A stretch of DNA of 64,000 bases from an uncultured Rikenella sp. (GCA_964635655.1 CAZWOC010000004.1:29521-93520); one strand, 5' to 3'. Positions 28,195-54,084 are shown, counted from the first letter of the stretch. Translations and numbers: made by a program. Notes: a model not told the origin generated them from the sequence alone.

Positions 28195-29232
28195 ATGCAA
28201 GCAAGAGTTTTGACCTTTGGAGAAATTATGCTCAGATTGTCAACTGAGCGTTATGAACGTTTCAGTCAGGCCGGTAGTTACAAGGCCACATTCGGGGGAG
28301 GTGAAGCCAATGTGGCAGTCTCCCTGGCAAATTTCGGGCTGAATACTGACTTCATTACACGCCTTCCCGACAATGACATCGGCCAGGCTTGCCTGATGGA
28401 TTTGCGCCGTTACAATGTGGGAACATCACGGATCATCATCGGAGGTGACAGGCTGGGGATCTACTTCATTGAAACAGGTGCAGTCGCTCGTGGAAGCAAA
28501 GTCATTTATGATCGCGCCCATTCTTCAATCTCGGAAATAAATCCAGGAATGCTGAATTGGGATGATATCATGGAAGGTGCCACCTGGTTCCATTGGACAG
28601 GTATTACCCCTGCAATTTCCGAAGGTGCAGCAGAAGTCTGCAAGGAGGCGATAGCAACAGCCAACCGCAAAGGAATAACTGTATCAGTAGATCTGAATTA
28701 CAGGAAGAATTTGTGGAAATGGGGGAAAAAAGCCTCTGAAGTAATGCCTGAACTGGTAGCCGGTTGCGATATAATCCTGGGAAATGAAGAAGACGCTGAA
28801 ATGGTCTTTGGAATTCGTCCTGATGGTGTTGATGTTTTAAGTGGAAATATTAAAGCCTCTGCATATGAATCGGTATGCCGTCAATTGATGGCGAGGTTCC
28901 CCAGGGCCAAAAAAGTGATTATTACACTGAGAGGTTCCATCAACGCAAATCATAATACCTGGGGCGGAGTTCTCTTCGATGGCAACAAATTACTTGAATC
29001 CAGGAATTATGATATTTCTCACATAGTTGACAGAGTTGGGGGTGGCGACAGTTTTATGGCCGGGTTAATTTATGGCCTGATCAGTTTCCCGGGCGACGAT
29101 CAGTTCGCTCTGGATTTTGCAGTTGCCGCTTCCTGCCTCAAGCATACAATACATGGAGATTTTAATCTGGTTTCTGTTAAGGAAGTGGAAAATCTCATGA
29201 AAGGGAATGCATCAGGGCGCGTATCAAGATAA
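28195..29232 (+). CDS. kdgK: 2-dehydro-3-deoxygluconokinase (PfkB family)
   Basis: 345 aa. N-terminus VLTFGEIMLRLS and the PfkB signature DRVGGGDSFMAGLIYG. Confidence 0.75.
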   Translation: MQARVLTFGEIMLRLSTERYERFSQAGSYKATFGGGEANVAVSLANFGLNTDFITRLPDNDIGQACLMDLRRYNVGTSRIIIGGDRLGIYFIETGAVARGSKVIYDRAHSSISEINPGMLNWDDIMEGATWFHWTGITPAISEGAAEVCKEAIATANRKGITVSVDLNYRKNLWKWGKKASEVMPELVAGCDIILGNEEDAEMVFGIRPDGVDVLSGNIKASAYESVCRQLMARFPRAKKVIITLRGSINANHNTWGGVLFDGNKLLESRNYDISHIVDRVGGGDSFMAGLIYGLISFPGDDQFALDFAVAASCLKHTIHGDFNLVSVKEVENLMKGNASGRVSR

Positions 29233-30777: not shown

Positions 30778-32970
30778 ATGTACGGATTAAACTTGATTGA
30801 TATTATAATAATTGTTTTATACTTCATTGCTATTATTGCCATAGGAGTCTGGGCAAGCCTTCGTATAAAAAATCAGGAAGATTATCTGCTGGGAGGCAGG
30901 AAATTTGGAAGACTGGTCCAGACTTTTGCCAGTTTTGGTCAGGCCACATCTGCTGATGGTCCGGTAGGTACCGTAACGACAACTTTCAAGAATGGAGCGG
31001 CCGGAATCTGGAGCTCTCTGTTAATGGTCTTTGCAACACCTATGTACTGGATCACATCGCCCTGGTTAAGAAGAATGCGGGTTCTGACATTAGGCGACTT
31101 CTATGAAGAGCGTTTCGGATCAAAGAAAATGGCTGGTGCATATGCCATTATAGGTGCCATTGGTATGATGGGGCTTATCTCTGTTGGCTATGTGGCGATG
31201 AACAAAACCATCCTGGCAATTACTCCCAAAACGGTTCAGGAATATACTCCTGTTGAAAAGCAGGAGTATGATCGCGCAATGGTACTGAATTCACTTGAGG
31301 AACGTGACTATGTCAGTCTGACTGAGCAGGAACAGGCACAGCTTAAAGAATTGAGGATTGAACAGCCCAGGTCAGTCTTCTCATATTTCAATGAGTCAGT
31401 AGTTGTCTGGATTGTCTGCCTTGTAATCATCATTTATGCAGTATTTGGCGGATTGGAGGCTGCCTTTTATACTGACATGCTTCAGGGGATCTTCATAATT
31501 ATTCTCTCATTTCTCCTGATCCCCTTCTCCTGGATAAGGATTAAGAATGTATATGGCGCCGGTTCCGGTGACTCGGCATTGAACATTCTGCATGATAAAT
31601 TACCTCAGGCATTTTTTGAAATCTTCGGCTCCCCTACCCTGATTGATTTTACCTGGTATTTTATTATTACAGCATCCCTGGTAGCGGCAGTTACAGTAGT
31701 TACCCAACCAAACCAACTGGTTACAAATGCAGCCGCCAAAGACGAATACTCTGCCCGCTTCGGCATGGTTACAGGTGGTTTTATTAAACGCTTTTGTACA
31801 ATAATGTGGGGTCTGGTCGGGCTTTCTGCTATTTTACTTTATACCGGAAAAGTACATAATCCCGACCTGGTGTGGGGTTATGCAATCCATGATCTGCTGG
31901 GGCCTGCAAAACTTGGTCTTGTCGGTTTTATGATATCTTCAATGATGGCGGCATTAATGTCCACTGCTTCTGCCCTCATGCTTACTGTTTCAGGATTGAT
32001 GCTTCACAATGTATATAAACCTCTGGTACAAGGTAAGTCGGAAAAACACTATGTCTGGGTTGGAAGGATATTCGGCGCCGCCTTCCTTGTAGGCGGAGCC
32101 CTTATCGCTACGCAGTTCGACAGTATACTTGAGATCCTGAAATTCATATGGGAGTTCTTTGTGATATTTGCAGCAGCATTCTGGCTTGGCCTGAAATGGA
32201 GACGTGCTAACAGGCAGGGAGCCTGGACTTCAATCCTGGTTACTCTTTTCGTTTTCTATATTTTGCCGGTAATTATCCCGATGTTGATTCCTTCCATAAA
32301 GCAAAATCCCGAATTGTTGCTTCAAACCGAACCTGCTCCTATCATGCGTACCTACACTGCCCGTGATACTGATGTTACAGACCGCATGAAGGAGATTACT
32401 CACTGGAACCTGATGAACGAGGCGGGAACTGCTATAGGGGAATGTCCTGCAGAACTGAAAGCAGGTGATACATTCTCAAAAACATATGAGCTCCCGACCA
32501 AAGCTATCTTCTGGTCAAAACAGCCCTCAATAAAGGATGACGGCTCTCTTGAAGCCCGCGGTTATCTCTTCCCTGAATTGTTGCTTCTACACAAAATGGG
32601 GGTGCCTTTGAATCACAAACCATATGCTTTGAATGAAACAGTCAGGATGCTCATCAGACTTATCTTCCCGTTCATCCTCATGATCATTGTGGCATTACTT
32701 ACAAAACCACAAAATGATGAAAAAACAATGCGCTTTTTCCTTAAAATGAGGACACGCGTTCGTGGCCTTGGGGCAGAGGTTGACAAAAATGACCTGAAAG
32801 AAGCATATGCTAATCCTGAAAAGACAAAATCAATCCTGGCTTTTCCGAATACCTCCCTTGAAATCTATAAATGGGACAAACAGGATCTTATCGGGTTCCT
32901 GGTTTCAATTGTAGTTGTGTTGGTGGTTATCGGAACTCTGTTTTTCTTCGTTAATCTTGGAGGAAACTAA
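30778..32970 (+). CDS. Sodium:solute symporter (SSS) family transporter, unusually long (730 aa)
   Basis: Multi-TM protein whose N-terminus (EDYLLGGRKFG) is typical of the SSS family. Two hydrophilic insertions lie at about aa 150-205 and aa 506-622. Confidence 0.7.
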   Translation: MYGLNLIDIIIIVLYFIAIIAIGVWASLRIKNQEDYLLGGRKFGRLVQTFASFGQATSADGPVGTVTTTFKNGAAGIWSSLLMVFATPMYWITSPWLRRMRVLTLGDFYEERFGSKKMAGAYAIIGAIGMMGLISVGYVAMNKTILAITPKTVQEYTPVEKQEYDRAMVLNSLEERDYVSLTEQEQAQLKELRIEQPRSVFSYFNESVVVWIVCLVIIIYAVFGGLEAAFYTDMLQGIFIIILSFLLIPFSWIRIKNVYGAGSGDSALNILHDKLPQAFFEIFGSPTLIDFTWYFIITASLVAAVTVVTQPNQLVTNAAAKDEYSARFGMVTGGFIKRFCTIMWGLVGLSAILLYTGKVHNPDLVWGYAIHDLLGPAKLGLVGFMISSMMAALMSTASALMLTVSGLMLHNVYKPLVQGKSEKHYVWVGRIFGAAFLVGGALIATQFDSILEILKFIWEFFVIFAAAFWLGLKWRRANRQGAWTSILVTLFVFYILPVIIPMLIPSIKQNPELLLQTEPAPIMRTYTARDTDVTDRMKEITHWNLMNEAGTAIGECPAELKAGDTFSKTYELPTKAIFWSKQPSIKDDGSLEARGYLFPELLLLHKMGVPLNHKPYALNETVRMLIRLIFPFILMIIVALLTKPQNDEKTMRFFLKMRTRVRGLGAEVDKNDLKEAYANPEKTKSILAFPNTSLEIYKWDKQDLIGFLVSIVVVLVVIGTLFFFVNLGGN

Positions 32971-32985: not shown

Positions 32986-33025
32986 CGGGCAGGCAGCTTA
33001 ATCCTGCCCGACTTCTTGTTTATTG
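32986..33025 (+). terminator. Hairpin with a T-rich tail after the symporter gene (possible terminator or attenuator)
   Basis: CGGGCAGG (32986-32993), 9-nt loop, CCTGCCCG (33003-33010), then ACTTCTTGTTTATTG. Confidence 0.4.
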
Positions 33026-33038
33026 ATTTGTAAAGGCA

Positions 33039-33848
33039 ATGATAAAAGACAATAAAACCGACGTAAGTCTCTTTTTACGCTCTGACCACAAAAAGTATTT
33101 GAGTACGGTCAGTTCAGCATCAGGTGACCTGTTTGAAGCTCTCGGGCATCACGGACCAGCTGTTGAAAATGAATGGATGGGATTAAGGCTCTATTTTAAT
33201 TATAAAACATCCGTTGACCTTTATTCAAAATCAAGGCCAGGCCTTGTACTGCGGGAAACCCGCTGGTATCCTACGCCGGAACAACAAAATAACGGCTGGG
33301 GCGCAGACTATTATATAGTGGGCGAAACAGTCGGCCTTGGAGGTGTACGCTTATGGAATGGTCTGAATGTTCAATTACTGGATCCGGTATCAAACCGTAC
33401 AGCTGTTGTCAACAGGGGTCTCTCCAGTTCATACATGGAAATGATATCTGAAGGGATTCCTTATAATGGAGAAAAAACAGATGTAATGGTAAGGATTACT
33501 GTATTCTCAGGAGAGAGGAATGCTATGGTTGAGGCATTCGCGTTAACAAAATCACCGGTTCAATTTGTAACCGGTCTGAATTATCATGATGGTGTTGAAG
33601 TTGTACAGAAGGATGGCCTGATAGCTACATGGGGAATTCATCCGCCTGATATTGCCGCTGAACCAAACCCCATAGGAGCTGCCGTCATTTACTGTCCGGA
33701 TGACTTCCTGATGAGACAGGATGACGGTAAACAGATACTGCTTATATCCAAACCGACCAGGTACATGAAAACCTATATTTCATCTGCTAACGCAAGAGAA
33801 CCAGAAATCAATACACTTGAAAAATTATTAAGACTCTTCGACAATTAA
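33039..33848 (+). CDS. DUF4861-like protein, short form with no signal peptide
   Basis: 269 aa. Alignable by eye with the C-terminal two thirds of the 5105 lipoprotein. Has no signal sequence and lacks the first ~100 aa. Confidence 0.5.
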   Translation: MIKDNKTDVSLFLRSDHKKYLSTVSSASGDLFEALGHHGPAVENEWMGLRLYFNYKTSVDLYSKSRPGLVLRETRWYPTPEQQNNGWGADYYIVGETVGLGGVRLWNGLNVQLLDPVSNRTAVVNRGLSSSYMEMISEGIPYNGEKTDVMVRITVFSGERNAMVEAFALTKSPVQFVTGLNYHDGVEVVQKDGLIATWGIHPPDIAAEPNPIGAAVIYCPDDFLMRQDDGKQILLISKPTRYMKTYISSANAREPEINTLEKLLRLFDN

Positions 33849-34302
33849 GATCATCCTCTTCGGACTTTCAATAAGATACCAGGTCATCCAATATCTTATC
33901 TTCCCTGTTGGTCAGACATTTTCTTATTATCGGTAATGATGAAGATTTCGGCTAAATGAACCGGAACTATACTCAGGCTAATACTCTGCCAGACCGGATT
34001 ATTTCATTTGGATTAGCTATAAAAAGAAGTATCGGTTTAAAAGAAGCTAATATTACATCATATGTTGATAATAATTCCAAAAGAATATACAGTATGTCTC
34101 CTTACTTTTATTCCTGAGTTATTTAATGAAAGTACCAGTGAATCCACGGTGATTCAAGGAACGAGGTTATTGGGCAGAAATATTGAAATTAAATTACATA
34201 TCATTGAAACAGAGGATTTTAATTTTCTAAGCCGTGTCTGAAGCACTGCCGGAAAAGATAGAAGATTGAGATATTACGTTTAATGCTATTGACCATGTTA
34301 TT

Positions 34303-35217
34303 ATGACAGTTGAAAAAACTAATGCAGCCAAAGTAGATAGCAAATGCAAGGTGCTTTTGAAGGCTTCCGGAGAAGATATATATCAGGACATGCCTTCTGA
34401 GAGAGCAGGGTGGAACCTATTGAATTTCAATGCAAGAGTTATTAAACCAGGGCAAGAATGGAACGGCAGCACCGGTAATAATGAGTATCTATTCGTGCTG
34501 ATGGGTGGCAATTTCGAAGCCATTACCTCCGCCGGAACCTGGAAAACAAAAAATGGTAGAAGAAATCCGTTCAGCGGATTGCCTCATGCTCTTTATCTTC
34601 CGCCACAAACTGAATTTGAAATCAATCCGGTTGGCGGTCCCCTTGATATAGCCTGTGGATGGACTCCTTCAGACAAAATATTTCCTGCCCATTTTATAAC
34701 CCCTGCAGATGTAGAAAACATGGGGATTGAGTTTCGCGGGGGAGACAATGCAAGCCGGCAGATAAACAGCATTTTACCTCCCGGTTCGCAATGCCACCGG
34801 CTGGTATGTGTTGAAGTATATACACCTTCAGGTAACTGGAGCTCCTTCCCTGCCCATAAACATGACAGGAGAAAAACAGATCCCCTGACAGGCAAGCTGA
34901 CGGAAGCTGATCTTGAAGAGATTTATTTTTATAAGACTGAGAAGCCACAGGCCTTTGCATACCAGAAAGTATATAATGATGACCGGAGTCTCAACGAACT
35001 GGCAGAGGCTCACAACAATGATATTGTAATGGTTCCTGAAGGTTACCACCCAGTGGTGGCATGTCACGGATACAACATCTACTACCTTAATTTTCTGGCC
35101 GGAAGTGATCAGAGCCTTGCAAGTACAGATGATCCTGATCATAAGTGGATTTACGGGACATGGAAGGGGATGGATCCAAGGTTACCAATGGTGACTTCTG
35201 ACATGAATGATGCCTGA
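34303..35217 (+). CDS. iolB: 5-deoxy-glucuronate isomerase (IolB; KduI/IolB cupin family)
   Basis: 304 aa. Cupin core with SFPAHKHD ... EEIYFYK ... GYHPV. Adjacent to iolD/iolA/iolE/iolG homologues. Confidence 0.7.
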   Translation: MTVEKTNAAKVDSKCKVLLKASGEDIYQDMPSERAGWNLLNFNARVIKPGQEWNGSTGNNEYLFVLMGGNFEAITSAGTWKTKNGRRNPFSGLPHALYLPPQTEFEINPVGGPLDIACGWTPSDKIFPAHFITPADVENMGIEFRGGDNASRQINSILPPGSQCHRLVCVEVYTPSGNWSSFPAHKHDRRKTDPLTGKLTEADLEEIYFYKTEKPQAFAYQKVYNDDRSLNELAEAHNNDIVMVPEGYHPVVACHGYNIYYLNFLAGSDQSLASTDDPDHKWIYGTWKGMDPRLPMVTSDMNDA

Positions 35218-35338
35218 TGTTATGCAACGGATGGATGAGTGACTCTGGTCCTTGCCATACTTTCGAAGCCCTGCCGCAAGGCACAGCCATATTGTATCAC
35301 AGATGGAATAAAGAATAATTAAACAAATAATCAGAGAC

Positions 35339-36430
35339 ATGATTGAAGAGAAAACACATGAAATCAAGGATTTAAAAAGCGTCCTTCATGAGATGACAAT
35401 GACAACAAAAACTGTTCTTTGGAATGATTCCTGCTCAATAGAAGAGCTGACATGGTCCATTGGCCATGGTGCTATTGGAGCAACCTGCAATCCTGTTATT
35501 GTTGGTTCAGTACTCAAAAAGGAATGGGACCAATGGAAAGACAGGATTCCGGAAATTATCGATCAGTTCCCTACTGCCACTGAGGACGAAATCGCATGGA
35601 AGCTGATTGAAGAGATGTCAATTAAGGCAGCTGCCCTGCTGAAACCTGCATTTGACAGGGAGAAAGGGAAAAACGGCAGGTTGTCAATACAAACAGACCC
35701 GAGGTTATACAGAGATCCTGCCAGGATTCTTGCCCAGACAGAACATTTTAACAGCCTGGCGCCAAACATGATCATAAAAATACCTGTGACAAAAGCAGGA
35801 CTGGAAGCAATTGAGGAAGCTACTTTCAGGGGAATTAGCATCAATGCAACAGTCAGCTTTACACTGCCTCAGGCCTTAGCAGTAGCAGAAGCAGTAGAAA
35901 GAGGTTTGTTCAGACGTGAAAAGAAGGGCCTGGATATAAGTACCATGGGACCCGTTTGTACCATTATGGTCGGAAGGCTTGATGACTGGTTGAGAAATGT
36001 GGCAGACAAGGAAAATCTGACAACCAATCCCGGAGTACTGGAATGGGCCGGTGTTGCAGTAATGAAAAAAGCCTATCGGATTTACCGGGAAAGAGGTTAC
36101 AGAACAAGACTTCTCAGCGCAGCTTTCAGAAATCATCTTCATTGGTCTGAATTTATTGGCGGAGATATGGTGGTTTCACCTCCGGCAAAATGGCAGAAGA
36201 GGTTCATTAATTCCGGGATATCCGTAGAAAACAGGATTGAGAAGCCTGTGGCTCCGGAAATCATTGCCGAGCTTGAAGCAAAATTTCCGGACTTCAGAAA
36301 AGCTTATTATGAGGATGGCATGAAACCTGAAGAATTCGATGAATTCGGAGCAACAGTTAAAACACTCAGGCAATTCTGCCAGGCAACCACAGACCTTATC
36401 GTGGTTGTACGTGACATGATGCTTAAGTAA
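35339..36430 (+). CDS. Transaldolase-family class I aldolase
   Basis: 363 aa. Contains GATCNPVIV and the Schiff-base lysine block MIIKIPVTKAGLEAIEEA, then INATVSFTL. The true start may be an internal Met (MTMTTKTVLWNDS). Confidence 0.75.
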   Translation: MIEEKTHEIKDLKSVLHEMTMTTKTVLWNDSCSIEELTWSIGHGAIGATCNPVIVGSVLKKEWDQWKDRIPEIIDQFPTATEDEIAWKLIEEMSIKAAALLKPAFDREKGKNGRLSIQTDPRLYRDPARILAQTEHFNSLAPNMIIKIPVTKAGLEAIEEATFRGISINATVSFTLPQALAVAEAVERGLFRREKKGLDISTMGPVCTIMVGRLDDWLRNVADKENLTTNPGVLEWAGVAVMKKAYRIYRERGYRTRLLSAAFRNHLHWSEFIGGDMVVSPPAKWQKRFINSGISVENRIEKPVAPEIIAELEAKFPDFRKAYYEDGMKPEEFDEFGATVKTLRQFCQATTDLIVVVRDMMLK

Positions 36431-36461
36431 ACCTATTTGAAATCTGTAAGAAGCTTATAAA

Positions 36462-38321
36462 ATGAAAATAACTGTAGGACAAGCTGTAATAAGATTCCTG
36501 AAATGTCAGTATGTGGAATTTGACGGAGAGGAAAAGCCGTTTTTCGCAGGTTGTCTTGGAATATTCGGTCATGGAAATGTTGCCGGAATAGGTGAAGGTC
36601 TGCTTGAGAATCCTGATTTCAGATATTACATCACCAGGAATGAACAGGCGTCAGTGCACATAGCAACAGCTTATGCTAAAATGAAAAACCGGCTGGGAAC
36701 CTTTGCCTGCACTTCATCTATAGGCCCCGGGGCCACCAATATGGTAACAGGGGCTGCCTGTGCCACTATTAACCGGATGCCTGTGCTGTTACTTCCGGGT
36801 GACATATTTGCGAGACGCAATGTTGCTCCCGTATTACAGCAGCTGGAATCACCGTCCTCACAGGATACATCAGTGAATGATTGTCTGAAACCGGTTTCCA
36901 GGTACTGGGACAGGATTGAGAGACCGGAGCAGCTTATTACTGCTTTACCGGAGGTCATGAGAGTCCTGACTTCACCTGCTGATACCGGGGCCGTCACACT
37001 CTCCCTGCCACAGGATGTCCAGGCTGAAGCCTTTGACTTCCCCGAAGAACTCTTTAGAAAAAGGGTATGGAGAATCCCCCGGCCAAGACCTGACACTGCC
37101 TTGCTGAACCGGGCTGCTTCCATGATAAGAGCCTCTGAAAAACCAGTTATTATTGCAGGCGGAGGTGTGCTGTACAGTGATGCCGTCAATATCCTGAAAA
37201 AATTTGTAGGGATGACAGGGATTCCTGTAGCAGAGACATTTGCAGGGAAAGGATCATTACCTTATGATCATTTATGCAACCTTGGTGCAGTTGGCGCAAC
37301 AGGCACTCCGGGAGCCAACGAAATAACACAGCAGGCTGACCTTGTAATAGGCATAGGCACCCGTTACAGTGATTTTACAACAGCTTCCAAAACTGCCTTC
37401 CAGAATCCGGATGTCAGGTTTATAAACATAAATGTCGCAGAGTTTGATTCCTACAAACATGGGGCTCTTCCCCTTACATCAGACGCAAGGGTATGTCTGG
37501 AAGAGTTATCAGAAATGCTGGAAGATTACAGGGTTCCGGAAAATTATCGTTCAAGGATAAAAGAACTGAACCAGGCATGGGACAAAACAGTAAGTGATCT
37601 CTGTAAGGTCACCGGCAATCTGCCGGTCTCTCAGGCAGAGGTAGTGGGTGTCGTGAACGAGTTTTCAGGGCCCCGTGACGTTGTACTTTGTGCCGCAGGA
37701 AGTCTCCCGGGAGACCTTCATAAACTATGGCGTACAGTTGATCCCAAAGGATTCCACCTTGAATATGGTTATTCAACAATGGGATATGAATGTGCAGCCG
37801 GAATAGGTGCAAGAATGGCAAGTCCTGACCGTGAAATCTATGTTATGGTTGGTGACGGGAACTACCTGATGATGAATAATGAGATTGTAACTGCAATTCA
37901 GGAAGGAATTAAAATTACAATAATACTGCTTAACAATAACGGATTTGGAAGCATAGGAAACCTGTCCCAGTCATTGGGAACTCAGCGCTTCGGCACCAGA
38001 TACCGGTACCGTAATGAAAAAACCGGGCAACTTGATGGTGCCATATTGCCGGTTGACTTTGCACAGAATGCACGCAGCCTTGGGGCATTCGTAATAGAAG
38101 CATCAGATATAGATTCACTTAGAAGTGCGCTGAAGGTGGCCCGGGCTCAGGACCGAACCACTGTAATCACCATTGAAACTGATTTGTATAAAAGCATCCC
38201 CGGTTACGGATGGTGGGAAGTTGCCGTCTCTGAAGTCTCAGAAATTGAGTCGGTCAGACTGGCTTACGATAATTACCTGGTAAATAAGAAAAAACAAAAA
38301 TACTTTCTTGGAAACGATTAA
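36462..38321 (+). CDS. iolD: 3D-(3,5/4)-trihydroxycyclohexane-1,2-dione acylhydrolase (IolD), ThDP-dependent
   Basis: 619 aa with the ThDP-binding motif GDGNYLMMNNEI. Length and context match IolD. Confidence 0.8.
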   Translation: MKITVGQAVIRFLKCQYVEFDGEEKPFFAGCLGIFGHGNVAGIGEGLLENPDFRYYITRNEQASVHIATAYAKMKNRLGTFACTSSIGPGATNMVTGAACATINRMPVLLLPGDIFARRNVAPVLQQLESPSSQDTSVNDCLKPVSRYWDRIERPEQLITALPEVMRVLTSPADTGAVTLSLPQDVQAEAFDFPEELFRKRVWRIPRPRPDTALLNRAASMIRASEKPVIIAGGGVLYSDAVNILKKFVGMTGIPVAETFAGKGSLPYDHLCNLGAVGATGTPGANEITQQADLVIGIGTRYSDFTTASKTAFQNPDVRFININVAEFDSYKHGALPLTSDARVCLEELSEMLEDYRVPENYRSRIKELNQAWDKTVSDLCKVTGNLPVSQAEVVGVVNEFSGPRDVVLCAAGSLPGDLHKLWRTVDPKGFHLEYGYSTMGYECAAGIGARMASPDREIYVMVGDGNYLMMNNEIVTAIQEGIKITIILLNNNGFGSIGNLSQSLGTQRFGTRYRYRNEKTGQLDGAILPVDFAQNARSLGAFVIEASDIDSLRSALKVARAQDRTTVITIETDLYKSIPGYGWWEVAVSEVSEIESVRLAYDNYLVNKKKQKYFLGND

Positions 38322-38332
38322 CAATTTCTATT

Positions 38333-39805
38333 ATGGCTTCAAAAATAAAGAATTACATAAACGGTCAGTGGATCGAATCAAAGGGGACACAGTACTTTGA
38401 TGTAATCAACCCTGCAACCTCGGAATGCCTTGCGAAGGTACCGGCAGGCTCTCATGAAGATGTAGATTATGCGTCAGAATCAGCTCACAATGCATGGAGT
38501 GGCTGGAAGAATACTCCTGCCGTAAAAAGAGTCCAGTACCTGTTCCGGATGAAACAGATACTCGAAGACAACGTTGATGAGATCGCTGCAATCTGTACAA
38601 AAGAAAGCGGAAAGACCTTCTCCGAATCAAAAGCTGAGATGGTCAGGGCTGTTGAAAATATTGAGGTAGCCTGTAATGTTCCAAAACTCATTCAAAGTGA
38701 CTTTTCGGAGAATATAGCAACAGGCATCGATGAATTCTATATCAGGCAACCTCTCGGAGTCGGGGCGTGCATTGCTCCCTTCAATTTTCCTATAATGATT
38801 CCTTTCTGGTTCATGCCATACGCTATTGCCTGCGGCAATACTTATATTGTAAAACCCTCTGAGAAGGTTCCTCTTACCATGACCCGTATCTTCGAATTGT
38901 TCGAAGCAGTAAACCTGCCTGCGGGAGTATTGAATATGGTCCACGGAGGAAGGGAGACGGTGGATTCAATCCTGGAGAACAAACTTATACCTGCCATCAG
39001 TTTTGTAGGTTCAACTATAGTTGCAAAACACATTTACCAGACCGGCGTGAGCCATGGCAAACGGATTCAGGCCCAGGGCGGAGCAAAAAACCCTGTGGTT
39101 GTAATGCCTGATGCTGATGAGGATACTGCAGTGCGAATCATTGCTGACAGTGCCTTCGGTTGTGCAGGCCAAAGATGCCTTGCCGCTTCGGTTGTGATAA
39201 CGGTAGGCAATACCGGAAAAGAATTTGCTGATAAGATCGTTAAAGCAGCAAAGGCCAAAAAGGTAGGAAACGGTCTTGATGAGGGAGTCGAGATGGGACC
39301 TGTCATTACTGCTGAAAGTAAACAGCGAATCGAAAAACTTATTATAAAAGGACTGGACGACGGCGGGAAAATACTCCTTGACGGAAGAAACATCAAAGTA
39401 TCCGGATATGAAACAGGTAATTTCATCGGACCGACGGTAATTGAACTGGCCAACACCAATAATGAAATCTATAACACAGAAGTATTCGGACCGGTCCTCT
39501 GTCTCGTTCATGCCGACAGCCTTGACAAAGCCATTGAACTTGTAAATGCCAGCCGTTATGGCAATTCTGCCTGCATATTTACCAACAGTGGTAATGCTGC
39601 AAGGAAATTCAGGCATGAAGTATTAGCCGGGAATGTAGGTATAAATATAGGTATAGCTGCTCCGATGGCCTTTTTCCCCTTCAGCGGGTGGAAAGAGAGC
39701 TTCTTCGGTGATTTGCACGGGCAGTCTATGCATGCAATTGAATTTTATACCCAGACGAAAGTCGTTATTGAACGCTGGCATGATGAATGGGCAAGAAAAT
39801 TCTAA
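38333..39805 (+). CDS. iolA: CoA-acylating methylmalonate/malonate-semialdehyde dehydrogenase (IolA/MmsA)
   Basis: 490 aa aldehyde dehydrogenase with the catalytic Cys block FGCAGQRCLA. The C-terminus (ESFFGDLHGQSMHAIEFYTQTK) is typical of MmsA. Confidence 0.8.
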   Translation: MASKIKNYINGQWIESKGTQYFDVINPATSECLAKVPAGSHEDVDYASESAHNAWSGWKNTPAVKRVQYLFRMKQILEDNVDEIAAICTKESGKTFSESKAEMVRAVENIEVACNVPKLIQSDFSENIATGIDEFYIRQPLGVGACIAPFNFPIMIPFWFMPYAIACGNTYIVKPSEKVPLTMTRIFELFEAVNLPAGVLNMVHGGRETVDSILENKLIPAISFVGSTIVAKHIYQTGVSHGKRIQAQGGAKNPVVVMPDADEDTAVRIIADSAFGCAGQRCLAASVVITVGNTGKEFADKIVKAAKAKKVGNGLDEGVEMGPVITAESKQRIEKLIIKGLDDGGKILLDGRNIKVSGYETGNFIGPTVIELANTNNEIYNTEVFGPVLCLVHADSLDKAIELVNASRYGNSACIFTNSGNAARKFRHEVLAGNVGINIGIAAPMAFFPFSGWKESFFGDLHGQSMHAIEFYTQTKVVIERWHDEWARKF

Positions 39806-39853
39806 AACCAGCTTTAAATATTTTCTTTAAACTATGCCAAATACCTGATTAAG

Positions 39854-40753
39854 ATGATTAAAGTAGCCAATGCACCCTGCTCATGGGGTGTCCTTGAATT
39901 CGAGCTTGAGCAAGAATCAGCCGGATATGAACAAGTCCTTGATGAGATCAAATCAACCGGTTATTCCGGTACTGAACTCGGAGATTGGGGATTTATGCCT
40001 ACCGATCCACCCGCTTTAAGACAAGAGCTGGATAAAAGAACCCTGACTCTTGTCGGTGCCTTTGTACCGGTCTTCCTGAAAAACAAATCTGCCCATCCTG
40101 AGGGTATTGCAACCGCTGTAAAAATTGCAGGATTAATGGCCGACGCCGGTTTCCCTGAGGCATTTATTGTCCTTGCCGACAATAATGGCACGGTTAAAGA
40201 ACGCACCCTCAACGCCGGAAGAGTTACTGACTCAATGGGATTGTCTTCCGGGGAATGGAAGATTTTTGCTCGAGGGGCAGAGGAAGTTGCAAGGCAGGTT
40301 AAAAACGAAACAGGTCTCCGTACCGTTTTCCATCATCACTGTGCAGGCTATGTTGAAACACCCAGAGAAATTGAAACACTTCTCAGTCTCACGGACCCTT
40401 CTCTTCTCGGCCTGGTTCTTGATATGGGCCATTATGCCTTCGGAGGAGGAGATCCGCTTGAAGCCCTGAAGAAATACAGGGAACGTATCTGGCATATACA
40501 TTATAAGGATTGTGAACCCACGATTGCTGACAGGTCCAGGAATCAGAGGTGGAACTATTTCAAATCGATTGGAAATGGGGTATTCTGCGAACTTGGCAAA
40601 GGTTCTGTTGATTTTAAGTCTATTACTGCCGAACTAAAAGCCAGAAAATACTCCGGATGGATTGTCGTTGAACAGGATGTCCTCCCTGGAATGGGAAATC
40701 CCAAACAGTGTGCTCTCCGTAACAGGCAATATCTCAACTCAATCGGTCTGTAA
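39854..40753 (+). CDS. iolE: Xylose-isomerase-like TIM-barrel protein, inosose dehydratase (IolE)-like
   Basis: 299 aa. Pattern APCSWG ... FHHHCAGYVE ... DMGH ... HIHYKD parallels the IolE pattern APIGW ... YHHHMG ... DTGH ... HVHFKD. Confidence 0.6.
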   Translation: MIKVANAPCSWGVLEFELEQESAGYEQVLDEIKSTGYSGTELGDWGFMPTDPPALRQELDKRTLTLVGAFVPVFLKNKSAHPEGIATAVKIAGLMADAGFPEAFIVLADNNGTVKERTLNAGRVTDSMGLSSGEWKIFARGAEEVARQVKNETGLRTVFHHHCAGYVETPREIETLLSLTDPSLLGLVLDMGHYAFGGGDPLEALKKYRERIWHIHYKDCEPTIADRSRNQRWNYFKSIGNGVFCELGKGSVDFKSITAELKARKYSGWIVVEQDVLPGMGNPKQCALRNRQYLNSIGL

Positions 40754-40783
40754 AAGACCTGTAACTTTCTTAAAATTAAACCT

Positions 40784-41803
40784 ATGGCAAAATTAAAAAT
40801 TGGTGTTATCGGTACAGGACGGATCGGGAAAGTCCATATCGCAACATTGGTGCAGAGTGTCCCGCAGGCTGAAGTAGCAGCCGTAGCTGACATTGATCTT
40901 AATTCAGCAAAACAGGTAGCTGAAAAATTTGGCGTCATGTCTGTTACTGATCATCCCGATGAAATAATAGCAAATAAGGAAATTGATGCCGTCGCCATCT
41001 GCTCCTCAACAGATACACATGCACGCTACATCATAGAAGCAGCCAAGGCGGGCAAGCATATCTTCTGCGAGAAACCTGTGGATCTGTCTATCAGGGTGAT
41101 ACAAGACTCAATAGAAGCAACTTCAAGGGCAGGCGTCAAACTCATGCCTGGATTCAACCGTCGCTTTGATCCGAATTTCATGAAATTGAGACAGCTGGTT
41201 TCAGAGGGCGAAGTTGGTGAGCCGCACATTCTGAAGATTACATCCCGTGATCCGGCACCTCCCCCGGCAAAATACAGTGCAGTCTCAGGCGGAATGTTTA
41301 TGGATATGACTATTCATGACTTTGATATGGCCAGATTCATGATTGCCAGTGAGGTTGTGGAAGTTTTTGCAAAAGCTGCCGTACTGGTAGACCCGGAATT
41401 GGGAAAAGCAGGAGATGTAGACACTGCCGTCATAACCCTGACATTTGCCAACGGTGCAATTGGGGTGATTGATAACAGCCGGAAGGCTGTCTATGGATAT
41501 GATCAGCGGGTAGAGGTTTTTGGATCAAAGGGAATGTGTTGTGCAGACAATAATTATCCTGATAATCACCAATTATACAATAAAGCAGGTGTCCATGGCT
41601 CCCTGCCGTTGAATTTCTTCATGGACAGATACACAGAAGCATACGCAAATGAAATGAAGGCGTTCTGCAATGCAGTTCTGAATGACCTGCCTCTGCAGGT
41701 ATCCGGCCATGACAGCCTGATGTCTGCTGCAATTGCATTTGCAGCCAGGAAATCTGTCCTGGAGAATAGGATTGTTAAACTGACTGAGATAATTAAGTGC
41801 TAG
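40784..41803 (+). CDS. iolG: Inositol 2-dehydrogenase (Gfo/Idh/MocA family)
   Basis: 339 aa with the Rossmann motif GVIGTGRIGKVH and the FCEKP motif. Located in the iol cluster. Confidence 0.75.
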   Translation: MAKLKIGVIGTGRIGKVHIATLVQSVPQAEVAAVADIDLNSAKQVAEKFGVMSVTDHPDEIIANKEIDAVAICSSTDTHARYIIEAAKAGKHIFCEKPVDLSIRVIQDSIEATSRAGVKLMPGFNRRFDPNFMKLRQLVSEGEVGEPHILKITSRDPAPPPAKYSAVSGGMFMDMTIHDFDMARFMIASEVVEVFAKAAVLVDPELGKAGDVDTAVITLTFANGAIGVIDNSRKAVYGYDQRVEVFGSKGMCCADNNYPDNHQLYNKAGVHGSLPLNFFMDRYTEAYANEMKAFCNAVLNDLPLQVSGHDSLMSAAIAFAARKSVLENRIVKLTEIIKC

Positions 41804-42013
41804 GCTTCCAGGGAGAGAAATTGACCTGGCGGAAGTAAATACAGTTCTGTATCCGGAAACAATCCGGGTTGGTTGCAGACCTGCAGACCAGTCACGGAAA
41901 GCAGGTTTCTGATCCGTCATTTCTGAATGAGGATTAACAAGATCAGACGTTTGCCTGTTTCCGAATACAGGAAATAATTGACTTTTTTTATAATAAATTT
42001 TTAAAACCTTATC

Positions 42014-42856
42014 ATGAAAACCATAGTAGAAATCCGATATGCCGCACATCCGGGTGATGTAAAACATTGGGATAGTGAGCGCATCCGAAAGGAACACCTG
42101 ATACAGGACCTCTTTGAAAAAAATACAGTTAAAATGGTATACTCACTGTATGACCGGATGATCGCCGGAGGAGCCATGCCTGCAGGAGAATCACTCAAAC
42201 TCGAAGCTATTGATGAGATAAAGGCTCCATACTTCCTTCACCGACGTGAACTTGGTATTTATAATGTCGGAGGAAAGGGAACCGTGAAGGTTGACGATTC
42301 CCTGTATCCCCTTGATTTCAAGGAAGCTCTCTATGTTGGAAGCGGTGACCGCGAAGTGATCTTTGAAAGCGATGACAAGTCTAATCCTGCGCTTTTCTAT
42401 TTCTGTTCAACTCCGGCTCACCGGAGTTACCCTGATAAAAAAATAACCAAAAATGATGCTATTTCAGTTGAGCTTGGCTCAGCCGAGGCGTCAAACCACA
42501 GGGTGATAAACAAGATGGTCGTGAACCAGGTACTGGAAACATGCCAGCTTCAGATGGGCATGACCGAGCTGAAGCCGGGAAGTGTCTGGAATACAATGCC
42601 TCCGCATACACACAGCAGACGCATGGAGGTATATTTTTACTTTGAAGTACCTGAAGGTGATACTGTATGCCATTTCATGGGCGAGCCTACCGAAACAAGG
42701 GTAATATGGATGAAAAACAACGAAGCAGTCCTGTCACCTCAATGGTCAATTCATGCTGCTGCTGCCACATCGTGCTATACTTTTATATGGGGTATGGGTG
42801 GAGAGAACCTGGATTACGGCGATCAGGACTTCCTGAAACCAGGCGATCTCAGATAG
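42014..42856 (+). CDS. kduI: 5-dehydro-4-deoxy-D-glucuronate isomerase (KduI), copy 2
   Basis: 280 aa, collinear with copy 1 over its full length. Shares a 41-bp identical DNA run (42536-42576 = 3958-3998). Confidence 0.85.
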   Translation: MKTIVEIRYAAHPGDVKHWDSERIRKEHLIQDLFEKNTVKMVYSLYDRMIAGGAMPAGESLKLEAIDEIKAPYFLHRRELGIYNVGGKGTVKVDDSLYPLDFKEALYVGSGDREVIFESDDKSNPALFYFCSTPAHRSYPDKKITKNDAISVELGSAEASNHRVINKMVVNQVLETCQLQMGMTELKPGSVWNTMPPHTHSRRMEVYFYFEVPEGDTVCHFMGEPTETRVIWMKNNEAVLSPQWSIHAAAATSCYTFIWGMGGENLDYGDQDFLKPGDLR

Positions 42857-42926
42857 CAGAACATGCTACAACCGGTTGCGGTATACTTTGAATTACTATT
42901 AACAATATTATTATTAAAACTAAAGC

Positions 42927-43712
42927 ATGAGTAAAGACTTATTTAATCTGAAAGGACAAATTGCACTTGTTACAGGCGCTTCCTATGGAATCGGCATGGC
43001 TCTTGCCAAAGCTTTTGCACATGCAGGAGCCACAATAGTTTTCAATGATCTTTTCCCAGAAAAGGTGAAATCAGCTCTTGATATCTATAAAAGTGAAGGT
43101 ATCAATGCACATGGTTATGTTTTCGATGTGACGAATGAAGAAGAGGCAAAATCCTATGTTGAAAAGATAACCCATGAAGTTGGCCCTGTAACTATCCTTT
43201 GCAATAATGCAGGCATTATAAAAAGGATTCCTGCTCTTGAAATGAGTGCATCGGAATTCCGGGAAGTTATTGAAGTTGACCTCACAGGTCCATTCATTAT
43301 GTCAAAAGCGGTTGCCCCCGGAATGATAAAAAACGGAGGTGGTAAGATTATCAACATCTGTTCCATGATGAGTGAGTTGGGACGTGAGACCGTGTCAGCA
43401 TACGCAGCTGCAAAGGGAGGCCTGAAAATGCTTACCAAAAACCTGGCCTGTGAGTGGGCTGAATTCAATATACAGGTAAACGGCATAGGCCCCGGTTATA
43501 TTGCCACACCCCAGACACAGCCTCTGCGCACAGAAGGACATCCGTTTAATTCGTTTATTATCGGTCGCACCCCTGCTGCCAGGTGGGGAACACCTGAAGA
43601 CCTGTGCGGACCGGCTCTTTTCCTCGCCTCTGCTGCCTCAGACTTTGTAAACGGCCATATCCTTTATGTTGACGGTGGAATACTTGCATATATCGGCAAG
43701 CAGCCTAAATGA
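42927..43712 (+). CDS. kduD: KduD-type SDR, copy 2
   Basis: 261 aa, collinear with copy 1, with the same TGASYGIG and YAAAKGG motifs. Confidence 0.8.
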   Translation: MSKDLFNLKGQIALVTGASYGIGMALAKAFAHAGATIVFNDLFPEKVKSALDIYKSEGINAHGYVFDVTNEEEAKSYVEKITHEVGPVTILCNNAGIIKRIPALEMSASEFREVIEVDLTGPFIMSKAVAPGMIKNGGGKIINICSMMSELGRETVSAYAAAKGGLKMLTKNLACEWAEFNIQVNGIGPGYIATPQTQPLRTEGHPFNSFIIGRTPAARWGTPEDLCGPALFLASAASDFVNGHILYVDGGILAYIGKQPK

Positions 43713-43749
43713 TTCCGGTTACATGCAATGAAAATTGTGACTTAAGCAC

Positions 43750-43796
43750 TGTTCCCGGCATATAGATGATATATCCCGGGAACAATCTTTTTATTT
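43750..43796 (+). terminator. Rho-independent terminator after kduD copy 2
   Basis: TGTTCCCGG (43750-43758) pairs with CCGGGAACA (43776-43784), followed by ATCTTTTTATTT. Confidence 0.75.
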
Positions 43797-44207
43797 AAAT
43801 GCCCTGTATAATTGCGGTTGAATTTTTACCCGTAGCACGGTGATATCAACCAGATAAATACAGACAGTAAAAGGCAGCCTTAGGCTTTCTCTGACAATAC
43901 GTTCAGCCAATAGTGTCCGGACTACCCCCATTATCAGATATGAGCAGAAGTGCTTGCTTTAAGCATGGCTTTTATCTGGCTGGTGGCGTAGAATAAAGCT
44001 TCACGACGATTCATCAACAGCTTCCTGAAGACCTTGTGGTTAAGATGTATTTTATATGCATTACGGTAAGCCCGAGAGCGACTCCCGGTCCTCCGGCAGC
44101 ACGGAAACCATGACATCTTAGCACCGGTAACACCAATAAAGCCACATTAATAATCAGAAATTCCAATGTGAGTCATAATTTTTTCGCTAATTTTCGCCAT
44201 TTCCTGA

Positions 44208-45479
44208 ATGTTTTATAAATCAATGAGAGAAATAGATAAATACTCCTTTGGGATAGGTGACAGGTTCTCACATCAGGGCAGGGCTCAGCTTGAAGCTCTG
44301 ATAATGGCAGCAACTGAATTAGGCATAAACATTACTCCGGTCTGGAACAAGTCTAACAGGGAACATAACATAGTCCATTCGGTACCTGCAGATACCCGGG
44401 CTGAGGCTGATGATGCAGTAAAGGCCCTTAATTTTACCGGGCCCTATTTCGTTGATGCTGACCATATCAATCTCAACACCGTTATTCGCTATATCGGACA
44501 CTGTGATTTCTTTACACTCGATGTAGCCGACTATATCGGAACTGCAGCGACTGATGCCGATATTGACAGCTTCATGGATTCACACCGCTCCTACTGTGGT
44601 GACCTGCAGATACCAGGTATTACAGAAGCAGTTACCATTACAGAAAAATATCTGAGGGATTTTGCAGGTAAATTCCTCCTCGCATTGAAAAAAGCAGCTG
44701 AATTATACAATTATATAGCTTCAAAAGAAGGAGAAGGGAATTTCGTTACAGAGGTATCCATGGATGAGGTAGACGAACCGCAGAAACCGATAGACCTGCT
44801 CTTCATCCTTAAAGTCCTTGCAGAGATGAAAGTACCTCTTCAGACAGTGGCTCCAAAGTTTACCGGAAGGTTTAACAAGGGAGTCGATTATCAAGGTGAC
44901 CCCATTCGCTTTGCGCAGGAATTTGAGGAAGATATCCTTGTTGTCAAATACGCTGTCAGTCATTTCGGGCTACCAAAAAGTCTCAAGCTGAGCGTTCACT
45001 CAGGAAGTGACAAGTTCTCAATCTACAGGGCAATGGGTGATCTTATCCGGAAGCACGACTGCGGTCTTCATCTCAAAACTGCAGGCACCACTTGGTTGGA
45101 AGAGGTTATCGGTCTCGCACTGGCCGGAGGCAACGGACTTGATATGGCAAAGAAAATCTACCGTACTGCCTATTTCCGGCGTGAAGAATTGTGCGTCCCC
45201 TATACCACCGTCATAGACATCAGACCGGAGATGCTGCCTCATCCTGATACGGTTGACAATTGGGATACATTAAAATTTTCAGGCACCCTGCGTCATATAC
45301 CCGGAGATCCTGACTACAACCCCAGCTTCCGGCAGCTGATACACGTCGGATACAAGATTGCAGCTGAACTGGGGAAAGACTATACCGACGCACTCAGGGA
45401 AAATGAACGGATAATCTCTACCTGTGTCTGGGAAAACATCTACAGGCGTCATATAATACGTCTATTTACAACAGAATAA
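44208..45479 (+). CDS. uxaE: Tagaturonate/fructuronate epimerase (UxaE)-like protein, short form
   Basis: 423 aa. The blocks SFGIGDRF and FVDADHI recall the FGTGDRLG and GADADHV blocks of Thermotoga UxaE (from memory). Immediately upstream of uxaC. Confidence 0.55.
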   Translation: MFYKSMREIDKYSFGIGDRFSHQGRAQLEALIMAATELGINITPVWNKSNREHNIVHSVPADTRAEADDAVKALNFTGPYFVDADHINLNTVIRYIGHCDFFTLDVADYIGTAATDADIDSFMDSHRSYCGDLQIPGITEAVTITEKYLRDFAGKFLLALKKAAELYNYIASKEGEGNFVTEVSMDEVDEPQKPIDLLFILKVLAEMKVPLQTVAPKFTGRFNKGVDYQGDPIRFAQEFEEDILVVKYAVSHFGLPKSLKLSVHSGSDKFSIYRAMGDLIRKHDCGLHLKTAGTTWLEEVIGLALAGGNGLDMAKKIYRTAYFRREELCVPYTTVIDIRPEMLPHPDTVDNWDTLKFSGTLRHIPGDPDYNPSFRQLIHVGYKIAAELGKDYTDALRENERIISTCVWENIYRRHIIRLFTTE

Positions 45480-46913: not shown

Positions 46914-47594
46914 ATGTCATCATTCAGAAAAATCAATGCAATACTGGCAATGGAAGAGACCGGCCTCGTGCCTCTCTTCTTCAATTCTGACCCGGAGATA
47001 TGTAAAAAAGTAATTGCCTCATGCCATGCCGGAGGCGCAAAGGTATTTGAGTTTACCAACAGGGGCTACTTCGCCCATGAGGTCTTTGCTGATGTCAGGA
47101 AATGGGCACTCCGGGAGTTACCGGACCTGATGATAGGTGCCGGATCAGTTCCTGACGCCCCCACGGCAGCTATTTTTATGCAGATGGGTGCTGACTTTAT
47201 CGTCGCCCCCTCTCTGAATCCCGAGGTAGCCAGGATCTGCAACAGGAGAAAAGTACTCTGGATACCAGGATGCGGGACGGTGACCGAGATTTCACAGGCT
47301 GAGGAACTGGGTGCTGACATAGTGAAAATCTTTCCGGGCTCTGCCGTCGGCGGACCATCATTTGTCAAAGCCATCAAAGGCCCCTGCCCCTGGACAAGCA
47401 TAATGCCCACAGGCGGAGTGGAACCAACGGAAGAAAATCTTGGCAAATGGTTCGGGGCCGGCGTGACATGCGTGGGTATGGGTTCAGCCCTGGTGACAGA
47501 TAAAATAGTTAATGCAGGCGACTGGAAAACCCTGGAGAATATGGTGCGAAACACACTCGACCTGATCAGTAAGCTGAGGACAACCCGTAACTGA
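46914..47594 (+). CDS. eda: KDPG / 4-hydroxy-2-oxoglutarate aldolase
   Basis: 226 aa. Has VKIFPG and PTGGV blocks, and the context is hexuronate catabolism. Confidence 0.8.
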   Translation: MSSFRKINAILAMEETGLVPLFFNSDPEICKKVIASCHAGGAKVFEFTNRGYFAHEVFADVRKWALRELPDLMIGAGSVPDAPTAAIFMQMGADFIVAPSLNPEVARICNRRKVLWIPGCGTVTEISQAEELGADIVKIFPGSAVGGPSFVKAIKGPCPWTSIMPTGGVEPTEENLGKWFGAGVTCVGMGSALVTDKIVNAGDWKTLENMVRNTLDLISKLRTTRN

Positions 47595-49189: not shown

Positions 49190-49200
49190 AAAAATTACTC

Positions 49201-51372: not shown

Positions 51373-51376
51373 AACC

Positions 51377-52555: not shown

Positions 52556-52574
52556 CTTATTTAAAAGTGTTGAA

Positions 52575-54023: not shown

Positions 54024-54084
54024 ACCGGGCACCGGTTTGACTTTTTTCTATATTTTTACCCTGAACTTAAAGGCCTGAATCATT

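Follow-up and report, generated by a model that had tools for sequence, protein, structure and literature searches.

How can a bacterium complete the degradation of myo-inositol when the two enzymes that ordinarily finish the pathway are missing from its inositol gene cluster? Among the carbon sources that come from plants, myo-inositol, which is supplied by phytate and phosphoinositides, is a major one, and textbooks present its degradation by bacteria as a single route of seven enzymes, in the last steps of which the kinase IolC phosphorylates 5-dehydro-2-deoxy-D-gluconate (DKG) with ATP and the class II aldolase IolJ cleaves the DKG-6-phosphate so formed. The question is raised by a 64-kb stretch of DNA, hereafter the window, from an uncultured Rikenella sp. 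(a wastewater Bacteroidales bacterium), in which an iol block without iolC and iolJ carries a gene of the transaldolase family, hereafter the Tal-like gene with its product P0001, between iolB and iolD. We propose, with a probability of roughly 0.62, that one Schiff-base enzyme of the transaldolase/fructose-6-phosphate aldolase (FSA) superfamily replaces both IolC and IolJ by acting on unphosphorylated DKG. The block is made up of the following genes:

34303..35217, + strand: iolB, 5-deoxy-glucuronate isomerase, 304 aa (TIGR04378, 286 bits, cut-off 205; PF04962)
35339..36430, + strand: Tal-like gene, Gln-type long transaldolase family, 363 aa (P0001; PF00923, 132 bits)
36462..38321, + strand: iolD, trihydroxycyclohexane-1,2-dione acylhydrolase, 619 aa (TIGR04377, 904 bits, cut-off 715)
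38333..39805, + strand: iolA/mmsA, CoA-acylating malonate/methylmalonate-semialdehyde dehydrogenase (MMSDH), 490 aa (TIGR01722, 588 bits, cut-off 448.5)
39854..40753, + strand: iolE-like inosose dehydratase, 299 aa (TIGR04379, 207 bits, below the cut-off of 290; PF01261, AP_endonuc_2)
40784..41803, + strand: iolG, inositol 2-dehydrogenase, 339 aa (TIGR04380, 455 bits, cut-off 355)

These six same-strand open reading frames (ORFs; 34303-41803) are separated by intergenic gaps of 121, 31, 11, 48 and 30 bp in order, and they constitute a myo-inositol catabolic operon. The canonical set of IolG, IolE, IolD, IolB and IolA is present, four of the five lying above their NCBIfam cut-offs and only the IolE-like protein below (207 vs 290); orthologues of the latter with 69-76% identity occupy the equal cluster position in other Bacteroidales. 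A sigma-70 promoter scan of positions 33000-44300 has returned 23 candidates against a shuffled expectation of 20.4, with a model that does not cover Bacteroidota promoters, and a terminator scan of the same interval has returned 15 against 10.3 in shuffles; both counts are near expectation and uninformative on operon boundaries. Low-depth contigs from RNA-labelled metagenome runs (compost, wastewater) span the Tal-like gene and its neighbours, which documents their presence and not induction or co-transcription. The first-pass annotation of this window had described the five Iol homologues as tightly packed, had placed a 363-aa transaldolase-family protein with the motif IKIPVTK between iolB and iolD, and had noted the lack of iolC and iolJ in the block. 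All of this has been borne out, by the NCBIfam and Pfam matches and the gaps of 11-121 bp, by the segment MIIKIPVTKAG in P0001, and by tblastn of the entire 64-kb window with validated probes, respectively.

As probes, we have used B. subtilis IolC and IolJ sequences that were validated against NCBIfam before use (IolC 405 bits vs 300, TIGR04382; IolJ 429 vs 343, TIGR01859). In the whole window, the sole match of the IolC probe has been a kdgK-like gene at 28195 with 24% identity, and the IolJ probe has given no match to a class II aldolase. The search has also covered the flanking DNA of relatives of the Tal-like gene, so that the window and 174 loci were probed in all (86 loci with 1.61 Mb, the window included, and 88 further loci with 0.73 Mb; 2.3 Mb in total). 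Throughout these sequences, no tblastn match to IolJ has been obtained, and the IolC probe has detected nothing beyond the KdgK of the window and its three orthologues; because the window KdgK was matched, the probe is evidently able to detect PfkB kinases at 24% identity. For comparison, iolC is a core gene of canonical iol clusters, and genome surveys define inositol users by an iolBCDE core, the fourth core gene having been located elsewhere in 810 cases and the remainder having been ascribed to assembly problems (PMC9430895).

The proposal rests above all on how persistently the Tal-like gene accompanies inositol genes. An exhaustive HMMER search has retrieved 360 cluster representatives (50% identity) at E <= 1e-30, and relatives have been found in at least 565 genomes in a scan with one genome per species. 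Genomic context was counted in the best 80 of these at least 565 genome loci (64-77% identity), after ORFs had been called in all loci and clustered and the frequent clusters annotated; 79 of the loci were scored for iol linkage within 10 kb. They stem from Bacteroidales/Rikenellaceae, Acidobacteriota, Spirochaetota, Chloroflexota, Planctomycetota, Verrucomicrobiota and Anaeromyxobacter. The commonest neighbours among the 80 loci are an IolG-type oxidoreductase (43), IolB (39), IolD (38), IolE (34), a LacI regulator (34), a zinc-dependent alcohol dehydrogenase (Zn-ADH; 28) and IolA (27). At least one of IolB, IolD and IolE is encoded no further than 10 kb from the Tal-like gene in 43 of 79 loci, the distance to an iol gene is 300 bp or less in 34 of 79, and iol core genes are present in 30 of the 49 loci whose flanks reach 8 kb or more on each side. 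Within the Bacteroidota, seven of eight loci carry iol core genes, and the eighth (L010) lies on a 9-kb contig. The association between the Tal-like gene and iol genes is far beyond chance.

This association is retained through considerable rearrangement. The order IolB-Tal-IolD-IolA-IolE-IolG of the window is replaced in other Bacteroidales by SSF-Tal-IolB-IolD-IolA-IolE-IolG, where SSF denotes a transporter family and where three unrelated flanks have been found, and in Acidobacteriota by three layouts, namely IolE-IolG-Tal...IolD-IolB, IolB-IolD-IolG-Tal and a divergent IolGEADB/Tal. At a further locus (L092), a member with 43% identity ends an operon PBP-ABC-IolG-IolB-IolD-IolE-Tal, in which start and stop codons overlap. 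A second scan, which was anchored on this 43%-identical member and which together with look-ups yielded the 88 further loci, has shown IolD in 33 of 88 and a recurring order IolD-IolE-Tal in a clade of 43-50% identity. Gene fusions point in the same direction: the protein P0128 (L088, 686-2653) is a single 655-aa ORF in which IolE (TIGR04379, 341 vs 290) is fused to a Gln-type Tal domain, although it is known from one 5.5-kb Logan contig and an assembly artefact is possible, and the 566-aa protein P0157 combines a Tal-like part with an IolB-type part. In a phylogenetic tree, the window protein falls within a Bacteroidota clade of which eight out of ten members are iol-linked, and the context labels are strongly clustered, with 9 changes compared to 26.6 in shuffles. 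The swap has been seen in metagenome-assembled genomes (MAGs) of Bacteroidota, Acidobacteriota and Spirochaetota and on unassigned metagenome contigs. It points to a recurrent replacement in several phyla that would provide the inositol pathway with a kinase-free ending not described so far; indeed, a full-text search of the literature has found no paper tying a transaldolase-family enzyme to DKG or to the iol pathway.

The protein itself belongs to the Transaldolase/FSA superfamily of class I aldolase TIM barrels, as P0001 matches PF00923 with 132 bits against a gathering score of 27. All transaldolase models score far below their cut-offs (NF002881, 119 vs 367; TIGR00876, 85 vs 234; NF003026, 78 vs 344; TIGR00874, 59 vs 396), and the FSA model TIGR00875 reaches only 41 vs 246. 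An AlphaFold2 model of P0001 (pLDDT 95.9) has been compared with Foldseek, whose top matches are 3clm, 7oey and 3r5e, which represent the long transaldolases of N. gonorrhoeae and C. glutamicum (TM 0.80-0.83, identity 21-23%); 3r5e is also the best sequence match in the PDB, with E = 4e-19. Residues were mapped by aligning P0001 with the C. glutamicum and N. gonorrhoeae enzymes in HMMER and with E. coli TalB and FsaA in MAFFT; of the four reference sequences TalB, FsaA, IolC and IolJ, the last two were validated by hidden Markov models. The positions of P0001 correspond to those of TalB as follows:

D30: TalB D17
N51: TalB N35
Q118: TalB E96, the catalytic Glu in TalB
K147: TalB K132, the Schiff-base lysine
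N169: TalB N154
T171: TalB T156
M210: TalB F178, the position at which FSA has its catalytic Y131
R213: TalB R181, anion binding
R264: TalB R228, anion binding

The Schiff-base K147 is conserved in 112 of 114 relatives, and the phosphate-binding arginines R213 and R264 in 106 and 107 of 114. Equally constant is Q118: down to ~30% identity, 112 of the 114 relatives have Gln at this position, and Met occupies that of M210 in 99 of 114; the position of TalB S226 is Ala in P0001, and K243, H268 and Y323 have been recognized as conserved polar residues specific to the Tal-like family. By established enzymology, transaldolases use the Glu as their acid/base, and the solution in FSA is a Gln combined with a Tyr. 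That Glu is wild type in TalB and in the N. gonorrhoeae enzyme is evident from engineered variants in the PDB, namely TalB E96Q/F178Y and N. gonorrhoeae E93Q. Judged by its scores and by its predicted catalytic residues, the Tal-like protein is not a standard transaldolase. What it has in common with the long enzymes of C. glutamicum (3r5e) and N. gonorrhoeae (3clm), its best matches in sequence and fold, are the Schiff-base Lys, the Asp, Asn and Thr and the Arg pair; what separates it from them are the identity of 21-23%, the exchanges Glu to Gln and Phe to Met, and its own K243, H268 and Y323. With E. coli FsaA it shares the Gln at the transaldolase Glu position (Q59 in FSA, Q118 here), whereas the catalytic Tyr131 is replaced by Met210 and the chain is much longer (363 vs 220 aa).

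From the observed gene content, family placement, residue pattern and linkage, we infer the following substrate, products and acceptor for the Tal-like enzyme. Inositol would be converted to DKG by IolG, IolE, IolD and IolB, and this ketose product of IolB is the likely substrate because it is the only intermediate left without a consumer once IolG, IolE, IolD, IolB and IolA are present. Read from its keto end, DKG would offer the sequence CH2OH-CO-(3S)-CHOH-(4R)-CHOH, D-threo as in fructose, followed by a deoxy C5 and by a carboxylate C6 that would correspond approximately to the phosphate site of fructose-6-phosphate (F6P). With a free C1 hydroxyl and a fructose-like head it would be a close F6P mimic that suits the needs of Tal/FSA enzymes. 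K147 would form an imine with the C5 keto group of DKG, and breakage of the C3-C4 bond would release malonate semialdehyde, which IolA would oxidise to acetyl-CoA and CO2. The bound dihydroxyacetone unit would then be passed to glyceraldehyde-3-phosphate (GAP), giving F6P, or alternatively be hydrolysed to free dihydroxyacetone, as in FSA. The retained R213 and R264 would be compatible with a donor that carries a carboxylate, with an acceptor that carries a phosphate, or with both. The first-pass annotation had suggested that IolC and IolJ are replaced by a transaldolase-family enzyme working on the unphosphorylated IolB product, and each comparative genomic test applied here argues in favour of this idea, namely the conserved linkage, the IolE fusion and the non-standard scores and residues.

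Between the two fates of the dihydroxyacetone unit, transfer to GAP appears somewhat more probable than hydrolysis. No kinase family has been found among the annotated conserved neighbour clusters, which consist of iol genes, LacI regulators, dehydrogenases and transporters, and a release of dihydroxyacetone is therefore less favoured; moreover, both arginines that bind the phosphate of F6P and GAP are retained, and a Gln-type member with 51% identity, found with rpiB and rpe, suggests that the clade is capable of transaldolase chemistry. Owing to the Gln at the Glu position, the aldolase option keeps a substantial though smaller share of the probability.

The proposed logic has a counterpart in sulfosugar degradation, in which the 6-deoxy-6-sulfofructose (SF) transaldolase (SftT/SqvA, sulfo-TAL) takes the C3 glycerone unit from a ketose that is anionic and unphosphorylated and passes it on to GAP, yielding F6P (PMC7491151). 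In both cases an isomerase makes the ketose, a transaldolase would transfer the C3 unit, a dedicated dehydrogenase takes the released C3 aldehyde, and no sugar kinase is involved. The two enzymes resemble each other at the superfamily level only (BmSF-TAL 8bc3, E = 4e-5, 27 bits): SF transaldolases are short, with PDB chains of 218-226 residues, whereas the Tal-like protein is of the 363-aa long type, and their donor is a sulfonate, whereas the predicted donor here would be a carboxylate. Relative to the canonical pathway of B. subtilis and Salmonella (IolG/E/D/B/C/J/A), the window agrees in the tight same-strand block, in IolG, IolD, IolB and IolA passing their equivalog cut-offs and in the presence of an IolE-like protein, and it differs in the missing IolC kinase and class II aldolase IolJ and in the transaldolase-family gene between iolB and iolD. 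Other departures from IolJ are on record. An IolC-DUF2090 fusion has been identified by gene context as an alternative aldolase for the phosphorylated substrate (Price et al., 2022, PMC9007349) and is thus another non-IolJ answer to the last cleavage step, but DUF2090 is LacD-like, fused to the kinase and active on a phosphorylated substrate, whereas the present cluster contains no kinase and a protein of transaldolase fold. In Dysosmobacter, a fructose-bisphosphate aldolase-type (FBA-type) substitute has been suspected in the inositol pathway (PMC13311982).

Four observations weigh against the replacement of IolC and IolJ as proposed. First, ~40% of the loci with full flanks are without iol genes, so the family is broader than inositol; in these contexts Zn-ADH, short-chain dehydrogenases/reductases (SDR), PQQ-dehydrogenases, Gfo/Idh/MocA proteins, aldo-keto reductases and ABC sugar importers have been found, which fits a wider role of the family on ketoses made by dehydrogenases. 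Secondly, a Gln without the Tyr conforms to neither the transaldolase nor the FSA pattern, and catalytic activity of the Tal-like protein is an assumption. Thirdly, the 51%-identical Gln-type member mentioned above (L093, 952-4684) follows rpiB, an amidohydrolase gene and rpe in a pentose-phosphate-like setting, and some Gln-type members may consequently be ordinary transaldolases despite the Gln. Finally, two Bacteroidales loci (L005, 10001-16796, and L007) have the order Tal-IolD-IolA-IolE-IolG with no iolB within 10 kb, where either IolB is encoded elsewhere or a KduI paralogue serves in its place.

Among the competing explanations, the one that survives best takes the Tal-like protein for a class I aldolase of DKG-6-phosphate, which would yield dihydroxyacetone phosphate and malonate semialdehyde and would replace only IolJ, with the kinase supplied by the kdgK-like gene at 28195 or by an unlinked PfkB gene. 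We consider it unlikely. Two genes of the window have to be inspected in this regard:

28195-29232, + strand: kdgK-like PfkB kinase (NF041633 kinase half, 505 bits; IolC model, 103 vs cut-off 300)
46914-47594: eda (KDPG/KHG aldolase equivalog, 341 vs 275)

The kinase gene shares the strand of the iol block, is located 6 kb upstream of it and does reach 103 bits on the IolC model, and replacement of IolJ alone has a precedent in the IolC-DUF2090 fusions (PMC9007349). However, the kinase fits the 2-keto-3-deoxygluconate (KDG) kinase models far better (505 bits, compared to 103 against the IolC cut-off of 300) and sits with GH88, KduI, KduD, UxaC and Eda, so that it is best explained as a KDG kinase; furthermore, no PfkB kinase accompanies the Tal-like gene within 10 kb in ~170 other loci, although iolC is core in canonical clusters (PMC9430895). 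As regards the chemistry of the Tal/FSA family, to which the hypothetical DKG-6-phosphate aldolase would have to belong, its substrate would carry the phosphate on the dihydroxyacetone end. We know of no characterised enzyme of the family that uses such a 1-phosphorylated ketose, and we have counted this against the explanation.

A substitution of IolC and IolJ by KdgK and Eda, which the first-pass annotation had kept as a fallback, has been rejected. Both genes do exist at the positions it gave, 28195 and 46914, but both belong to the hexuronate set around GH88, KduI, KduD, UxaC and UxaE, neither travels with the Tal-like gene elsewhere (in the ~170 other loci the Tal-like gene has neither an eda gene nor a PfkB kinase gene as a companion), and Eda passes its own equivalog cut-off.

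Quite unlikely for the window is an action of the enzyme on another ketose, namely on a keto-sugar or keto-acid that the co-occurring dehydrogenases (Zn-ADH, SDR or Gfo/Idh/MocA) would make from a different cyclitol or polyol, with an indirect link to iol. In its favour, polyol and sugar dehydrogenases abound in the non-iol contexts together with ABC sugar importers, the neighbours of the gene in Acidobacteriota include additional IolG paralogues, Zn-ADH and a DegT aminotransferase, and some clusters are without iolB. Against this stand the Bacteroidales clusters (7/8), which consist of a transporter, the five iol enzymes and the Tal-like gene and in which DKG is the sole ketose without a consumer, as well as the position of the window protein inside the iol-linked Bacteroidota clade. 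Another ketose is thus possible for the non-iol paralogues and unlikely for the minimal Bacteroidales clusters. In Spirochaetota MAGs (L018, L022, L076), a genome or locus contains two to three Gln-type Tal copies, of which one adjoins IolA/IolB and others adjoin ABC sugar importers.

Finally, that P0001 belongs to an under-studied long subfamily and works as an ordinary pentose-phosphate transaldolase, its proximity to iol being regulatory or historical and canonical iolC and iolJ lying elsewhere, is very unlikely: it would account for the Pfam TAL_FSA match, the fold, the conserved Lys, Asp, Asn and Thr, both phosphate-binding arginines, the 51%-identical member with rpiB and rpe, and the gnd and tkt genes 16-18 kb downstream in a window in which no second Tal/FSA gene besides P0001 has been found, yet the canonical inositol route needs no transaldolase and the linkage nevertheless survives different gene orders and phyla, overlapping codons and fusions with IolE and IolB, the protein scores far under all curated transaldolase cut-offs and lacks the catalytic Glu, and some MAGs have two to three copies with one in the iol locus (L018/L022, L076).

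Taking the proposed replacement of IolC and IolJ a step further, one may postulate a large, unnamed clade of long Gln-type transaldolases whose dihydroxyacetone donors would be keto-sugars or keto-acids without a phosphate and that would provide kinase-free endings both for inositol (DKG and GAP giving F6P and malonate semialdehyde) and for other polyol and sugar-acid routes. Having neither the transaldolase Glu nor the FSA Tyr, such enzymes would be mechanistically new in the superfamily. We put this generalization forward tentatively, with somewhat less than even confidence. If the replacement is true, a Tal/FSA-fold enzyme would exist whose acid/base machinery resembles neither the transaldolase Glu nor the FSA Tyr, and a second natural case, after sulfo-TAL, would be at hand of transaldolases that act on non-phosphorylated anionic ketoses. 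GapMind-style tools would score organisms with the swap as gapped, and predictions of inositol use would have to be corrected in many bacteria of soil, peat and wastewater, Acidobacteriota, Bacteroidales and Spirochaetota among them. A biocatalyst for forming or splitting C-C bonds with dihydroxyacetone donors would also become available.

Two further contexts of the family have been noted. At a non-iol, sugar-acid-like locus (L089, 6813-11672), a Zn-ADH gene, a tandem pair of Tal-family genes (456 and 359 aa) and a LarA-like gene stand in a row and are followed by genes for a 2-hydroxyacid dehydrogenase and a dihydrodipicolinate synthase-family (DHDPS-family) aldolase. In Acidobacteriota (L020, L039, L048, L054, L063, L078, L085), a DegT/DnrJ-type aminotransferase gene has been observed directly after the Tal-like gene, in 14 loci, adjoining a second IolG paralogue and Zn-ADH, which may point to aminocyclitols (inosamine) or other cyclitols as inputs.

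The iol block of the window lies inside a pectin/hexuronate utilisation region with two SusC/SusD pairs, a pectinesterase, GH28, GH88, DUF4861, KduI, KduD, a UxaE-like protein, UxaC, Eda, an MFS transporter and a mannonate oxidoreductase, and a 93%-identical relative (L002-L004) retains the whole arrangement. The G+C content is 42-46% at 18000-46000 and 50-54% in the flanks (1-18 kb, 48-56 kb), and the second polysaccharide utilisation locus may have been gained jointly with the iol block and some of the hexuronate genes. A 730-aa SSF transporter (30778-32970), located between GH88 and DUF4861, differs from the 602-aa SSF that precedes Tal in other Bacteroidales (no blastp match at 1e-10), and the iol block of the window is therefore without an obvious dedicated inositol transporter. 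Directly after the second SusC/SusD pair, a 597-aa ORF (25179-26972) has no Pfam or NCBIfam match and is found beside an AraC regulator also in L002-L004. The hexuronate genes are followed at 50110-56118 by a LarA-like gene, a PdxB-like 2-hydroxyacid dehydrogenase gene, gnd and tkt. Taken at their longest, the ORFs of the MFS transporter (47660-49189) and of the mannonate oxidoreductase (49135-50046) share 55 bp, and since the NF006132 match of the latter starts at residue 23, its true start probably lies further downstream.

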